A DNA stretch of 64,000 nt from a virus. The position numbers were made by a program, and so were the translations under genes. The notes under the pieces are model-generated. The model was not told the DNA's origin. It did not search any database and saw only the letters and a list, made by a program, of their open reading frames with translations. Shown one piece after another: positions 6,098-49,509 of the stretch; the stretch's first letter is position 1; each line of letters begins with the position of its first letter. The stretch spans positions 1-64,000 of the IMG/VR virus record IMGVR_UViG_3300037189_026207; one strand, written 5' to 3'.

Positions 6098-6294
6098 GCG
6101 CTAAATTTTTTGCAAAATCGTGGCATATTATGTGTAGTCCAATCTTTTTATCGGACTACGAGATAGTTTAGAAGCTCACGTCGTGATTTGTATCGGGACA
6201 ACGCTTCACCAATTTATTTAACTGGTGAGCGCTGTGTCCGATACCCCGACCTTTTCCTAACTGTTGGCGCTTTTTCTTAGCTATTGAGGAATCA

Positions 6295-13161: not shown

Positions 13162-13233
13162 GCCGGCGTAGCTCAATGGTAGAGCTGTTGATTTGTAATC
13201 AGCAGGTTGGGGGTTCGATTCCCTCCGCCGGCT
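13162..13233 (+). tRNA. tRNA-Thr(UGU), CCA not encoded
   Basis: gccggcg acceptor, TAGCTCAATGGTAGAGC D-arm, anticodon TGT, GTTCGATT T-loop. Confidence 0.95.
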
Positions 13234-33208: not shown

Positions 33209-33790
33209 ATGTCAGCTGTTCTTGACGCGATTCGCCAGGTAACTGAAGTTGCAGAGAAAATTAAGAATGATAGTCCGCAAGATTTTCCAATTGCGGCTAA
33301 TGTTGGAGACGCAGTACGGCAAGGCGATATTTATATTCAATTGCTCGAGCCGTTAACTAAGGCGCCAGCTTTTTATACAAAGATTGCTGAGCCGGTGTTT
33401 CCATATCAGTTAGCGCCTGGAAATACCAAGGGGTCGAGGCATTGTTTGGAAGCCAGTGACGGCGTAGAAATTTACGTACCACAAACTGACGTGCTTTTAG
33501 ATGAGAATCTTGACGGCAATGATCGGTTTGAACTTGGTCGTGGATTTCGAGAGGATGTACACAAGTATGCTGAAAATCTTTCTTCAGTAGCCGGCGTACC
33601 TGTACATGAAATCGCCGCCGGAATTATCGAGGCTATGGATCTTGCTGGTCCGATTTTCGTGTTGAAGAATCCGACTACAGTATCGCATCCAGAGCATGGT
33701 AATTGGAATTTGCCGGCCGGAACGTATCGGTGTGTGTTTCAGCGCACTGTGTCGCTTAGTAGCAACTCTATTCGTAGAGTTTTAGACTGA
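33209..33790 (+). CDS. RQGD-motif partner of DUF6745
   Basis: RQGDI...LA.G...G..H...HPEH....L..G.Y....QR. Confidence 0.75.
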   Translation: MSAVLDAIRQVTEVAEKIKNDSPQDFPIAANVGDAVRQGDIYIQLLEPLTKAPAFYTKIAEPVFPYQLAPGNTKGSRHCLEASDGVEIYVPQTDVLLDENLDGNDRFELGRGFREDVHKYAENLSSVAGVPVHEIAAGIIEAMDLAGPIFVLKNPTTVSHPEHGNWNLPAGTYRCVFQRTVSLSSNSIRRVLD

Positions 33791-33800
33791 TTGTGTCGAG

Positions 33801-33984
33801 TGTTGAGATTTGGATTAATGCCAATCTCAACAATATTTTTTACGCAACAAAGGGCTGGATTAACGCCGCCCTTTGTTGTTTTTGTTTTTGGAGGGCGCTT
33901 TTAAACGCCCTCCAAAACATTTAAATTTGTTCATGTTGCTCTTATTTCTATACTAGGGAAGTATTCCCTAATCGAACTAAGTTC
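33801..33984. repeat. Cluster of five tandem inverted repeats; two share the loop TGGATTAAYGCC
   Basis: Stems at 33801-33832, 33845-33878, 33883-33919, 33954-33970 and 33974-33984. Confidence 0.9.
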
Positions 33985-34107
33985 TGTACAAAGTGGAAAG
34001 CTGGCGACGCAAAACGCCTGAAATTCTAGCCTTTTTTGGCGAATTGAGAAAATCTTAACCTCTGCGAGTTTTGTGGCCGCCCGCATTTTTCTGGGCAAAA
34101 CACAGGC

Positions 34108-34135
34108 TTGCGTCGTTTCGTATTCGCGATACACT
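34108..34135 (+). promoter_or_regulatory. Sigma70-like promoter
   Basis: TTGCGT-16 nt-TACACT, followed by GGAGG RBS. Confidence 0.45.
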
Positions 34136-34160
34136 ACACGCCCTGACTGTTGGAGGCTCT

Positions 34161-34466
34161 GTGGATTACCAAACTGACGAAGAGTTGTTTATTGACGGCT
34201 ACCGGCTTGTTTTAACGTCTCTAGCCTGTCCCGAGCAATACGATGTGTTCAACGCAAATGAAGTCAAAGTTGGGTACCTGCGTTTGCGTAGCGGCTATTT
34301 CCGCGCCGACTGCCCAACCTGCGGTGGCGATACAGTATACGAAGCGCACACACGCGGCGACGGCATGTTCGACAACGACGAGCGCCTGCCGCAATTAAGC
34401 GCAGCTATCGCGGCAATTTCTGCTTATTGGAAAAAGGCTATGGAGGAAAAGAATGACGACGCCTGA
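34161..34466 (+). CDS. Conserved phage protein (ACPEQYD...GYLRLR.G)
   Basis: GGAGG RBS, GTG start. Confidence 0.7.
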   Translation: MDYQTDEELFIDGYRLVLTSLACPEQYDVFNANEVKVGYLRLRSGYFRADCPTCGGDTVYEAHTRGDGMFDNDERLPQLSAAIAAISAYWKKAMEEKNDDA

Positions 34467-43303: not shown

Positions 43304-43329
43304 TTTGACGCCAAAGACAAATAACTTTT

Positions 43330-43403
43330 GGGCCTCTAGCTCAATTGGTTAGAGCATCGGACTTTTAATCCGTTGGTTCTGGGTTCGAGTCCCAGGGGGC
43401 CCA
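43330..43403 (+). tRNA. tRNA-Lys(UUU), CCA not encoded
   Basis: gggcctc/ggggccc acceptor, anticodon TTT, GGTTCGAGTCC. Confidence 0.95.
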
Positions 43404-43410
43404 TCACCCC

Positions 43411-43583: not shown

Positions 43584-43654
43584 TGCCCGATGGTGTAACG
43601 GTAGCACAAGAGATTTTGGTTCTCTTTGTCTAGGTTCAAATCCTAGTCGGGCAT
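43584..43654 (+). tRNA. tRNA-Gln(UUG), CCA not encoded
   Basis: tgcccga/tcgggca acceptor, agaga-TT TTG GT-tctct arm, GGTTCAAATCC. Confidence 0.93.
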
Positions 43655-45966: not shown

Positions 45967-48070
45967 GAACTGGTGTCAACATAAATACCGTGTCTGCACA
46001 TTTACACGCGGGCTGGTTGCAATCGTAGGAAAGATTGGCTCGGGTAAATCTAATTTATTAGGCGCAATTTGTTGGCTGCTTACCGGCGAAAATCCAAACG
46101 CCGGCGTAAAAGCTGATAATGTGGCGCAGTTGGCGTCTCCCGACGAGCCGGCATTTGCCACGCTTGAGTTTGAACACTCCGGGCACGTGGTTGTTGTTAC
46201 GCGGCACTTGCTTCCCGAAAAAGAACAAGCCACGCTTCTCGTCGACGGTAATGAGGCTGCTCGCGGAGATAAGGCGGTTACAGCTTACATTGAAAAGCTG
46301 CTCGGTATCGACAGCAAATTTATTTCTCGGTTTGTAATCGTTGCGCAGAACGAGATCTTTGCATTTATCGAGGATGGCGCGGCTGAGGTTGATAGGTTTT
46401 TCCAGAAATTGTTTGGCACAGCGGTCGCCGAGAAATGCCAAGACGTTATCGGCAAACACTTAAACAAATTGACAATCCCAGAGGTAATAGAAACTTCAAA
46501 TCAGCTAATTACGCGGCTTGACGAATTAAATGTCCAATTGAATGCGCTGGACATTGAAATCGCGAAACTACCCTCGCTCGAGTCTTTTTTAGCTATTCAA
46601 CAAACGCAGCAAAAAGTTATTCAAGACTGGGAGCGGCGAACGCGCTTGGTGGCGGAATTAGCTACCGCAGAAAAAAGCACTGAGATTCATGAACAGCAGC
46701 TTCAAGACGCTACGCGGGAACTTGCGCAGTACGACAGTGATCTTGAGGCACTGCGCAAAGCCCTCGGCGGCGATCAGGCGGCACATTCAACCGCTAAGAT
46801 TGCACTAGGGCATTGGGCAAACTATAAGCATTTGTCTACCGCAAAAGAAAAGACGCAAAATCGTATAAATGAAATTGTAACGCTGCGCGCGGCAACACAA
46901 GCTCCGGCAGCACCCGCGGCAGACGTTATTGATGTTGCTGTCAAACAAGAGATGGCGACAATTGCAGAGCTGACGCGTTTAGAAAAATTTGTAAGCACAT
47001 TTGCGACAGACGGCGTAGCCGAGTGTCCGACTTGCCACACTTCCGCAAAAGATTTGAAAAAAGCTGTCGAGCAAGCTCAGCGCAGTATTGTTGAATTAAA
47101 TGCGTTGCGTAAAAAGCAAAATGCGGAGGTTCAAGCGGCGTATACCGCAAAGCAGGCATATGATGTATGGGCGCAGCAGGATTTAAACCTAGCGGCAGAA
47201 GAGAAACAGCTCCGCGAATCCATGGCGCTGTTCTCCAATGTGCAAATGCCCGAGCTGAGCGAAGAAGAGTCCGCAAAAATTGTTATGGACTTTGAAAATT
47301 TTCAAAAGGCTGAGCTGGGAATTCTTCCGCTGGCGCAAGCCGCAAAAGAAAAACGCGCGGCGTTGTCTGGCGGTCTGTCGGCGGCTAAACAGCAATATGA
47401 AAATCTTCAGGCGCAGATTGCTGACATAAAAGTAACGCAGGCAGAGGCGCATATGGCTACCACTGTACTGCAAAATTTAAGCCAGCAGTGTGTCAAGCGC
47501 CAAGAGTTAGAGCGGCAACACGCAGAGTTGAAATTTTCTTGCGATAACATTAATCAACAATATTTAACTGCAAAAGAAAATGAGCAAAAAGCTGAGCGGA
47601 TGCGTGACTGGTCTGCGGTAGCCACTTCGGCAAAAGACGCGCTCAAGGCTGCGCCGAGGATTGTTGCGGCTAGAAATTTAAAAAGACTAGAGGCTGCAAT
47701 AAATGAATTATTACAAGTATTTGGTGTTGACTTTTTTGTACGCGCCGCCAATGACGAATCGCCAACATTTATTGCTGAATTTTTCGATGGACGTAAACAG
47801 CCGGCAAAAAGATTATCGTACGGGCAAAAAACCGTATTAGCGTTAGCTTTTCGCGTAGCTGTTAATGCGTTGTTTGCCGAAGAAATTGGTTTACTGGCGC
47901 TGGATGAACCCACAGCTTATTTAGATCAACAGAGAATTAAGGCGCTAGCCCCGGTTCTTGAAAAATTGCGCGAGCTTTCTACCGCGCGTGGGTTACAATG
48001 TCTATTGGTAACTCACGAAACTAGCCTGGCTCATTTGTTTGAGTCGGCGGTTGAGCTCGATGTGCAATAA
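45941..48070 (+). CDS. SbcC/Rad50 (gp46-like) ATPase
   Basis: GKIGSGKS, zinc hook CPTC, LSYGQK, LALDEPT, VTH. Confidence 0.92.
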   Translation: MQLLRLEVKNWCQHKYRVCTFTRGLVAIVGKIGSGKSNLLGAICWLLTGENPNAGVKADNVAQLASPDEPAFATLEFEHSGHVVVVTRHLLPEKEQATLLVDGNEAARGDKAVTAYIEKLLGIDSKFISRFVIVAQNEIFAFIEDGAAEVDRFFQKLFGTAVAEKCQDVIGKHLNKLTIPEVIETSNQLITRLDELNVQLNALDIEIAKLPSLESFLAIQQTQQKVIQDWERRTRLVAELATAEKSTEIHEQQLQDATRELAQYDSDLEALRKALGGDQAAHSTAKIALGHWANYKHLSTAKEKTQNRINEIVTLRAATQAPAAPAADVIDVAVKQEMATIAELTRLEKFVSTFATDGVAECPTCHTSAKDLKKAVEQAQRSIVELNALRKKQNAEVQAAYTAKQAYDVWAQQDLNLAAEEKQLRESMALFSNVQMPELSEEESAKIVMDFENFQKAELGILPLAQAAKEKRAALSGGLSAAKQQYENLQAQIADIKVTQAEAHMATTVLQNLSQQCVKRQELERQHAELKFSCDNINQQYLTAKENEQKAERMRDWSAVATSAKDALKAAPRIVAARNLKRLEAAINELLQVFGVDFFVRAANDESPTFIAEFFDGRKQPAKRLSYGQKTVLALAFRVAVNALFAEEIGLLALDEPTAYLDQQRIKALAPVLEKLRELSTARGLQCLLVTHETSLAHLFESAVELDVQ

Positions 48071-48073
48071 TTC

Positions 48074-49009
48074 ATGATATACTCAAATGATGAAAGCGCA
48101 ATTAAGCTACACGTAGACGACGCCGGTTTTGTGTGGCACGTTTCCGGGATCGATAAGCCACAAAATTCCGGCAAGTTGGTAGATACATTTTTGTATTCTT
48201 CGCCCGTGCTGCGCGTTAGTTCGAACGTGCGGGTGTTGGGTTTGTCGCAGAATGCAGAATTAATTACTAATATGTATCTGCGAAAGCGTCAGCGCGAATT
48301 AGGCAGCATATTAGTCGCTGGGCCAAACATCTGTGAGTCTGGGTTGGAGCTCCGCGATCCGTACATTGTTTTGATGCGGATGCGCGAGTCTTTTTTAACG
48401 TCAGCTTGCGGCGGTTGGCACACGATGACTGACGCAGACTACGCTACTTATGCGTTAGTGGCTAAAGCCCGGCAAACAGCGCATTGGTTTGATACGCCGG
48501 CGCGAGCTTTTTATACGGCTCACCCGGCATTTCCGGCGCTGCAGTTTATTCCTAACATTTCAAATCAGGACGCGGCTACTCTTTTAGCTACGATTGTGGA
48601 TCCCAGATGGTATGTAGATCGGCGTATTCCTGATCGTGCGTCTAAGCTTGAGTTGTATCTTGGTTTAACGCCAAAAATTCAGCGCCGCATATCCAATGAT
48701 AAAAAATTAATTTGCCGGGGGAGAGACTTACGTTGCGCTATTGTTTTAAATTGCTGGAAAACTCAACACCCAGGCGCCGTCGACTATAATCTGCCGCAAA
48801 ACTTTATCTGGCGAGTTTGGAAAGCGGCCGGCGGTGGCGCGAAGGGTGACCTGCGGGCTTCTCAGGCTTTTGTTCGTTATTTGCGCCTTAACTGGTTAGA
48901 CGCATTAATTTTAAGAGCAGGCCCCCGAGATCGTATTTTCTCTAGCAACAATTTTTTCAAAACATCTGAAGAACGAGACGCTTATTCTACTCATATGTCG
49001 GCAATGTAA
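48074..49009 (+). CDS. Domesticated IS110-transposase/Nop-domain-like protein
   Basis: HP....LQFIPNI....AA.LLA.I.DPRWY...SKLELYLGLTP; C-terminal RA...VRYL...W; DEDD and SG motifs not evident. Confidence 0.65.
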   Translation: MIYSNDESAIKLHVDDAGFVWHVSGIDKPQNSGKLVDTFLYSSPVLRVSSNVRVLGLSQNAELITNMYLRKRQRELGSILVAGPNICESGLELRDPYIVLMRMRESFLTSACGGWHTMTDADYATYALVAKARQTAHWFDTPARAFYTAHPAFPALQFIPNISNQDAATLLATIVDPRWYVDRRIPDRASKLELYLGLTPKIQRRISNDKKLICRGRDLRCAIVLNCWKTQHPGAVDYNLPQNFIWRVWKAAGGGAKGDLRASQAFVRYLRLNWLDALILRAGPRDRIFSSNNFFKTSEERDAYSTHMSAM

Positions 49010-49014
49010 TTTCT

Positions 49015-49509
49015 ATGCAAGAAGTTATTATCAAATTGCGGTTTAATCGGGAATGCTTAGGCGCCTCAAAGCGTAAACGACACTCGCAGGTCGTGTTTTC
49101 TTTTGATCATGATCCCGCCGGGCGCATCATGTTTATGCCGTCTGCGTGGAGTAGCGTTATGCGCTATGCGGCTAAATTATCAAATCGGCATCATGACGCA
49201 GTGCAGAAAATCGACTGGTGCCCGCTTGTAGAGGGTCAGCCTAGACCTGACTGGCGGCGTACGATAGTATCCAAGGCCGGCGAGGCTACCAGGACGCACT
49301 ACGCCGTGCACGAGGCTTTCCCGCCCGGCTCAACTATATTAATTTCTGCAGTTGTCCCAGATGAAATTTCGCTGAAAGAATTTGAAGATTTATTGACAAT
49401 CGTCGGAAAATACAAAGGCTTTTCACCATTTAACAACGCAACAGAGCATTATGGGACATTTGAAGTCTTATCAATCACCACAATCAGAGACAACGCGAAT
49501 GTCGGCTAG
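49015..49509 (+). CDS. Stand-alone RAMP (Cas7/Csm3-like) protein
   Basis: L.F...CLG, F.HD..G.I...S.W...MR.AA, HE..PPG, LL...G.Y.G.SP....YG.FEV. Confidence 0.65.
   Translation: MQEVIIKLRFNRECLGASKRKRHSQVVFSFDHDPAGRIMFMPSAWSSVMRYAAKLSNRHHDAVQKIDWCPLVEGQPRPDWRRTIVSKAGEATRTHYAVHEAFPPGSTILISAVVPDEISLKEFEDLLTIVGKYKGFSPFNNATEHYGTFEVLSITTIRDNANVG

Follow-up and report, generated by a model that had tools for sequence, protein, structure and literature searches.

The 370-bp non-coding gap at positions 33791-34160 is probably (we put it at about 0.7) the boundary between two transcription units, where stacked terminators are followed by a promoter. Plus-strand transcription of the upstream block would end at two tandem Rho-independent terminators, H1 and H2, backed up by a G/C-rich third hairpin, H3. 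The start of the next operon, which leads to the replication genes, would come after these, with an A/T-rich tract, a sigma70-like promoter overlapped by a palindromic operator, and then a leader of ~190 nt. From the sequence we infer termination at the hairpins as well as the promoter and the operator. This is essentially the outcome which the sequence-only reading had set against its own proposals, namely simply stacked terminators, with a promoter region added. H1 and H2 bear an identical tip on different stems, and this identity is not due to chance. A boundary of terminators and a promoter is routine in itself and would be of use for the annotation of transcription units in this uncultured group of jumbo phages.

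The phage fragment and the genes around the gap

The source is an IMG/VR virus record of 80,741 bp with a CheckV completeness of 39%, and the window, that is, the whole stretch of DNA analysed, comprises its first 64 kb (64,000 nucleotides). Since the proteins encoded at the flanks of the gap have dozens of relatives on contigs of ~200 kb, some of them with terminal repeats, the fragment is assigned to an uncultured jumbo phage. The search with the upstream protein gave relatives at 58-66% and an identical protein on a second contig of 171 kb; for the neighbouring protein, the best identity in IMG/VR and a metagenome scan was 47%. At the DNA level, the phage GenBank collection contained no match to the stretch, and a single distant match, to a MAG, was obtained from the genome collection.

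Nearly all genes of the window are carried by the plus strand. The left part contains genes of the large terminase subunit (minus strand), MoxR/CobT-like ATPases, HldD and a pyrimidine-dimer glycosylase. The right part is a replication block with SbcCD, two helicases, a primase, a DNA polymerase and a RecA-like protein, to which the operon downstream of the gap leads. Three complete relatives of ~200 kb (L245, L246 and L247, which are records G003, G004 and G002) contain an open frame of ~1,480 aa that matches the RNA polymerase beta domain RNA_pol_Rpb2_6 (E 1e-52 to 1e-55). Sigma70 region 2 was looked for in these relatives and not found, and a search of the 80.7-kb fragment for the beta domain and for sigma70 region 2 found neither. 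Judging from the complete relatives, the phage group probably carries its own multisubunit RNA polymerase.

Three tRNAs are encoded, tRNA-Thr(UGU), tRNA-Lys(UUU) and tRNA-Gln(UUG), at window positions 13162-13233, 43329-43405 and 43584-43654. The targets of bacterial anticodon nucleases include tRNA Lys(UUU) and Thr(UGU), and because of this the phage tRNAs may serve as replacement tRNAs. The anticodon-loop sequence of tRNA-Lys, CUUUUAA, is also included in the loop of H3, CUUUUAAA, probably as a chance likeness.

The gap and its borders contain the following features, given in window coordinates.

33209-33790, plus strand: last gene of the upstream operon, encoding a 193-aa conserved hypothetical protein, with a strong RBS AAAGGAG and the stop codon at 33788-33790
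33801-33832, plus strand: hairpin H1, arms and tip TGTTGAGATT-TGGATTAATGCC-AATCTCAACA
33811-33822, plus strand: copy 1 of the shared tip, TGGATTAATGCC
33845-33878, plus strand: hairpin H2, arms and tip CAACAAAGGGC-TGGATTAACGCC-GCCCTTTGTTG
33856-33867, plus strand: copy 2 of the shared tip, TGGATTAACGCC, 45 nt from copy 1
33886-33917, plus strand: hairpin H3, (TTTT)GGAGGGCG-CTTTTAAA-CGCCCTCC(AAAA)
33914-33954, plus strand: putative promoter of the next operon, sigma70-like as read from the sequence
33954-33970, unstranded: operator-like 7-3-7 palindrome, TAGGGAA and TTCCCTA around GTA (TAGGGAAGTATTCCCTA), overlapping the -10 element and the start site
33971-34160, plus strand: leader of ~190 nt, with a small terminator-like hairpin and U5 at 34072-34090 and the RBS GGAGG at 34152-34156
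34161-34466, plus strand: first gene of the downstream operon, 101 aa, GTG start, PHROG 21607 (function unknown)

The gap was confirmed: the upstream ORF has its last base at 33790, and the next start is the GTG at 34161, where the match to PHROG 21607 also begins, preceded by GGAGG. It had been described as the largest intergenic region in the window, and this is plausible for non-coding gaps free of tRNAs, the gene calling being crude. The 193-aa upstream protein has 231 homologues in the protein search, all of them unnamed, and no match to it was found in Pfam and PHROG; its AlphaFold model has a pLDDT of 85, and the comparison with PDB folds gave no match.

The impression that the plus strand shifts from A-rich to T-rich around the gap was right as far as the A-T slope is concerned. 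The best single breakpoint of this slope in the whole record lies at ~32,950, with 0.060 per base before and 0.008 after it, so that two compositional blocks of co-directional genes meet near the gap. The shift has no counterpart in the cumulative GC skew of the record, which rises steadily without an inflection.

Probable terminators, putative promoter and leader

The hairpin sequences quoted in the sequence-only reading were found exactly where it had placed them. H1 begins 11 nt past the stop codon of the upstream gene and consists of a 10-bp A/U-rich stem, a U bulge, GG:CC and the heptaloop AUUAAUG, followed on the coding strand by AUA and U6 at 33836-33841; terminator 1 thus spans 33801-33841. 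H2 has an 11-bp stem, a U bulge, GG:CC and the heptaloop AUUAACG, and its tail UUUUUGUUUUU at 33879-33889 reads U5GU5 on the coding strand, which gives terminator 2 a span of 33845-33889. H3 is a G/C-rich 8-bp hairpin at 33890-33913, extended by U4:A4, with an 8-nt loop. Its U-tract, CAUUUAAAUUUGUU, is poor, and H3 may therefore be a weak or back-up terminator or a stabiliser of the RNA 3' end.

When folded as RNA, the segment 33785-33945 forms exactly these three hairpins at -60.3 kcal/mol (z = -7.1; 0 of 200 shuffles were as good). Folded singly, H1 has -12.6 kcal/mol (z = -5.0), H2 -18.4 kcal/mol (z = -6.0) and H3 -20.2 kcal/mol, all with z <= -4.4. As to the features by which intrinsic terminators are recognised, H1, H2 and H3 are all stable stem-loops with G:C pairs, a U-rich 3' tract is present after H1 and H2 and weak after H3, and the array lies behind a stop codon which closes a co-directional gene block. 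The tails of H1 and H2 are U-rich on the plus strand and A-rich on the minus strand, so the signal is one-directional.

Two details of the stems may be added. The 3' arm of H2, CGCCCUUUG, and the 5' arm of H3, UGGAGGGCG, can pair with each other (33867-33897, plus strand) at -10.2 kcal/mol, which excludes both hairpins. H1 and H2 share their outer 5 bp in flipped orientation, TGTTG...CAACA in one and CAACA...TGTTG in the other.

The upstream protein has homologues of 28-51% protein identity in 31 loci, which formed the comparison set. In about 24 of these 31 related loci a strong hairpin directly follows the stop codon of the homologue, so that the presence of a hairpin at this gene's end is conserved in the group. 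In the closest syntenic relative there is a pair of hairpins and then a gap of ~200 bp. Other terminators in the record and its relatives follow the same design of a hairpin plus a U-tract. As a rule, the ordinary terminators of the phage group have G/C-rich stems and short loops, and it is the stem rather than the loop that is conserved. In the hairpins of the related loci the stem is kept (GCCCGGGCGGTAG...) and the loop is variable or even inverted, the reverse of what is seen in H1 and H2; the GGATTAA tip was looked for in the hairpins of these loci and found in none. The inversion concerns a stem GCCCGGGCGGTAG / CTACCGCCCGGGC located ~20-50 nt past the stop of the homologue, whose loop is TTTTTGG in L103 and CCAAAAA in L098, L101, L102 and L104; the two are reverse complements, i.e., the hairpin loop is inverted among related phages.

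Many intrinsic terminators have been mapped in jumbo phages (PMC11512511), and, according to another report (PMC10325885), a terminator at an operon end must hold against antitermination. The array resembles the tandem Rho-independent terminators of rrnB (T1-T2) and of phage operon ends, in which stacked stem-loops with U-tracts on the coding strand stand behind the last gene of an operon and the next promoter lies just downstream, as here. It differs from them in that two of its three hairpins bear an identical 12-nt apical module on unrelated stems, and from the terminators of the phage's own relatives in that there the stems, not the loops, are conserved. To our knowledge, loop sharing has not been described for known tandem terminators. 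H1 and H2 are thus atypical for the phage group, and plain terminators leave the retention of the tip alone unexplained.

The arguments for termination at these hairpins are their stability, the U-tracts pointing in one direction, the position behind the stop and the hairpins of the relatives; the boundary is also favoured by the break in the A-T slope and by the replication module downstream. Against termination stands the RNA polymerase beta-like protein of the complete relatives, because the termination rules of such an enzyme may differ from the canonical ones. The boundary as a whole is weakened by H3, which has no proper U-tract, and by the -35 element of the proposed promoter. This putative promoter is composed of an A/T-rich UP-like tract (33914-33926), the -35 element TTGTTC (33927-33932), a 16-nt spacer and the -10 element TATACT (33949-33954). 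TTGTTC matches the -35 consensus at 3 of 6 positions, and the promoter therefore falls below the threshold of the promoter scan. Taken together, these parts suggest a sigma70-like promoter with an overlapping operator. Two small palindromes had been noted in the gap, and one of them is clear: the palindrome at 33954-33970 occurs once in the 80.7-kb record, where the best of the other sites have 3 mismatches.

The rest of the gap (33958-34165) was folded as well and has no unusual structure (z = -0.6). A ~98%-identical strain from a second sample could be compared over the leader and coding pieces, no contig being available over the hairpins (33660-33934); its leader differs at 5 of 234 bases, and the flanking coding pieces differ at 1-3 bases per 150-234.

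The shared tip of H1 and H2

In the predicted fold, the tip module common to H1 and H2, UGGAUUAAYGCC, has a U without a partner, followed by two G:C pairs that close the heptaloop AUUAAYG. The two tips match in register at 11 of 12 bases, and the identity of the stems is at the level of random sequences. By our own calculation, the chance of such an in-register match is about 2e-6, and the local alignment of H1 with H2 gave p = 0.0008 against shuffles. The claim that one loop on unrelated stems is more than coincidence is thus supported statistically. Partial likeness of H3 to the shared tip (TTAAACGCC) had also been suggested and does not exceed what chance gives (p = 0.14); the idea that H3 descends from a copy of H2 was rejected as non-significant. 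Selection on the loop is what we infer from the contrast between stem and loop within this one genome.

The genome-wide search which the sequence-only reading had proposed found the 12-mer exactly twice in the 80,741-bp record, both times in this gap. A covariance model of H1 and H2 (R1) matched H1 and H2 alone in the record, nothing in four related records at E <= 10, and noise only in 90 related loci. Counts of the tip with up to one mismatch in five related records were at the level of the control, and none of the copies lay inside a hairpin. The tandem-tip pattern gave only coding tandem repeats in the part of IMG/VR examined, and the pattern of the tip plus T5 gave at least 118 stretches in IMG/VR. 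The only tip-T5 copy with a flanking stem of at least 6 bp among the matches listed (L152, the same as L184) was rejected, being inside a minus-strand ORF. A stem-flanked copy in one related locus (L044) was also set aside, as it lies within a coding ORF. The loop sequence GGAGCGAAT, which was looked for too, is absent here. Within the sequence data searched, the shared tip is private to this phage lineage and has no other copy.

In our reading, the tip may be an apical module that two terminators have retained, through common descent combined with selection on the tip or through recognition of both by a single factor. The second possibility can be put more specifically. The tip would be the binding site of a single RNA-binding protein of the phage or its host, possibly of a dimer spanning the two sites 45 nt apart. 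This protein would strengthen or suppress termination or protect the 3' end and, in this way, time read-through from the upstream block into the replication block. Such control adds to termination by H1 and H2 and is compatible with it; we consider it possible, though with a tentative standing well below even odds. It is favoured by loops identical at 11 of 12 positions on stems of random-level identity, a pattern that neutral divergence after duplication cannot yield, by the same predicted geometry of both tips and by the atypical character of these tips among the terminators of the phage group. The same loop on different stems is the usual mark of hairpins recognised by a protein; examples are lambda boxB, the MS2 operator and, in the thrS operator, two anticodon-like hairpins. 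However, the tip has only two copies, both at one locus, with no further one in the 80.7 kb; a covariance model at E <= 10 did not find it in four related genomes or in 90 related loci either, and no candidate binding protein was identified.

The closest parallels are boxB in the nut sites of lambda and P22 and the hairpins of the E. coli thrS operator, in which the same loop is also placed on different stems and two copies stand tens of nucleotides apart, where termination is decided. Unlike these systems, the present array has no cognate protein and no boxA-like partner, the sequence and size of its loop are unrelated to theirs, and its hairpins are the predicted terminators themselves, not loading sites upstream of them. 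It is unlikely, in our opinion, that the tip is a dedicated recognition element through which a lineage-specific factor would read two consecutive terminators and switch between termination and read-through, or alter 3'-end stability, at the border between the upstream block and the replication block. If this were true, the array would represent a type of protein-gated double terminator that has not been described for jumbo phages. A tip serving as a recognition site would offer a compact case in which factor-controlled termination could be tested in a large phage, and possibly a part for synthetic control of read-through.

Coding, replication and RNA-regulator alternatives

A small coding gene could also run through the hairpins, the tip being kept for the sake of its peptide, or translation through the hairpins gating termination as in the pyrBI leader; we consider this very improbable. 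The candidate ORF (33793-33924, plus strand) comprises 43 codons from GTG 33793 to TAA 33922-33924 (MSSVEIWINANL...), begins 2 nt past the upstream stop and spans all three hairpins. The 45-nt spacing of the tips is in frame, each tip translates to Trp-Ile-Asn-Ala in this one frame, and the T/C exchange that alone distinguishes them is synonymous, yet by our own estimate such an in-frame synonymous coincidence has a chance of ~7%. The codon-usage score of 0.17 per codon falls inside the range of real genes, but 24% of the shuffles that stay open score as well and a higher score is reached by one frame on the opposite strand. The region is T-rich, which leaves two of the three plus-strand frames open. 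In addition, the GTG has no preceding SD sequence, the syntenic relative has no such ORF, the protein collection searched contains neither a homologue nor the ORF itself, and internal terminators would cut short the ORF's own mRNA. The 43-codon ORF is therefore treated as a presumable coincidence.

A replication origin, or a site that forms a cruciform or serves packaging at the DNA level, has hardly any probability in our estimation. The origin and cruciform proposals of the sequence-only reading could draw on inverted repeats clustered in the largest gap, on the change of the A-T skew regime nearby and on the replication genes downstream, but they gained no support. Origins are marked by a skew inflection, by iterons or initiator boxes and by an AT-rich unwinding element. 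Here the cumulative GC skew has no inflection, iterons are absent, the two tips are the only direct repeats, and other segments of the record are richer in AT than the gap. The strand-specific U-tracts fit RNA signals and were counted against an origin. Both an origin and a packaging site are opposed by the terminase gene being 16 kb away.

A trans-acting multi-hairpin RNA is equally hard to credit, whether it is imagined as a CsrA/RsmA sponge acting through the GGA of its loops or as an antisense regulator pairing with mRNAs. RNAs of the CsrB/RsmZ type expose at least 4 and up to about 20 GGA motifs in hairpin loops. GGA is present in both tips, but no other loop has the motif, the GG of both copies is base-paired according to the predicted fold, and the Rfam search returned noise only, with nothing near any gathering score, so that the sponge which had been proposed found no confirmation. 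As regards antisense pairing, words complementary to the tip occur in the record at the expected frequency, and the best duplexes are scattered within genes; the one excess complementary word, GCATTAAT, was discarded as a coding sequence for Ala-Leu-Ile. Pairing with ribosome-binding sites is contradicted by the RBSs of the record, which are of the ordinary GGAG type and not complementary to the tip. No separate promoter for such an RNA was seen in the 11 nt that separate H1 from the stop codon upstream.

The cuckoo RNAs, or hairpins with anti-Shine-Dalgarno loops (PMC4615179), are similar in that several hairpins, which differ in their stems but have the same loop, follow each other in phage non-coding DNA behind a gene. 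Their loops are C/U-rich or complementary to a ribosome-binding tag and are conserved in many relatives, whereas the UGGAUUAAYGCC loop has no complementary target in the 80.7 kb and no copy in the relatives searched.

The suggestion that the hairpins are ligands for RAMP/Nop proteins was not borne out: the two candidate proteins, at 48074-49009 and 49015-49509 (called IS110-like/-derived and RAMP/Cas7-like), have no Pfam match at E <= 0.001, and their link to the hairpins is therefore unsupported. CRISPR arrays consist of repeats that are identical, including the stem, with unique spacers and cas genes nearby; a CRISPR repeat or a substrate of Cas6 (RAMP) was rejected here since the stems are unrelated and not identical repeats, and the RAMP-like and IS110-like candidates are without a Pfam match.

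Hairpin promoters, which had also been proposed, would require another geometry. In promoters of the N4 type, a stem of 5-7 bp with a 3-nt loop is read by the single-subunit RNA polymerase of the virion; the stems here have 10-12 bp, the tips 12 nt, and on the coding strand a U-tract comes after each hairpin. A search of the record for PF00940 gave no match, and neither did the positive control of this search.

A motif of another type, TTTTTAGCTAT (often TTTTTAGCTATYAGCGCT, or ...TTGGAGCTTTTATG), stands directly 3' of terminator hairpins and occurs also in L248-L259. It is strictly strand-specific in four of the five related phage records, with 15 matches against 1 for the control, and may be considered a candidate promoter for the phage group's own RNA polymerase, joined to the preceding terminator. 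Its sites are at 6274-6284 and 46586-46596 in the window and at 66526-66536 and 71388-71398 further along the same record.
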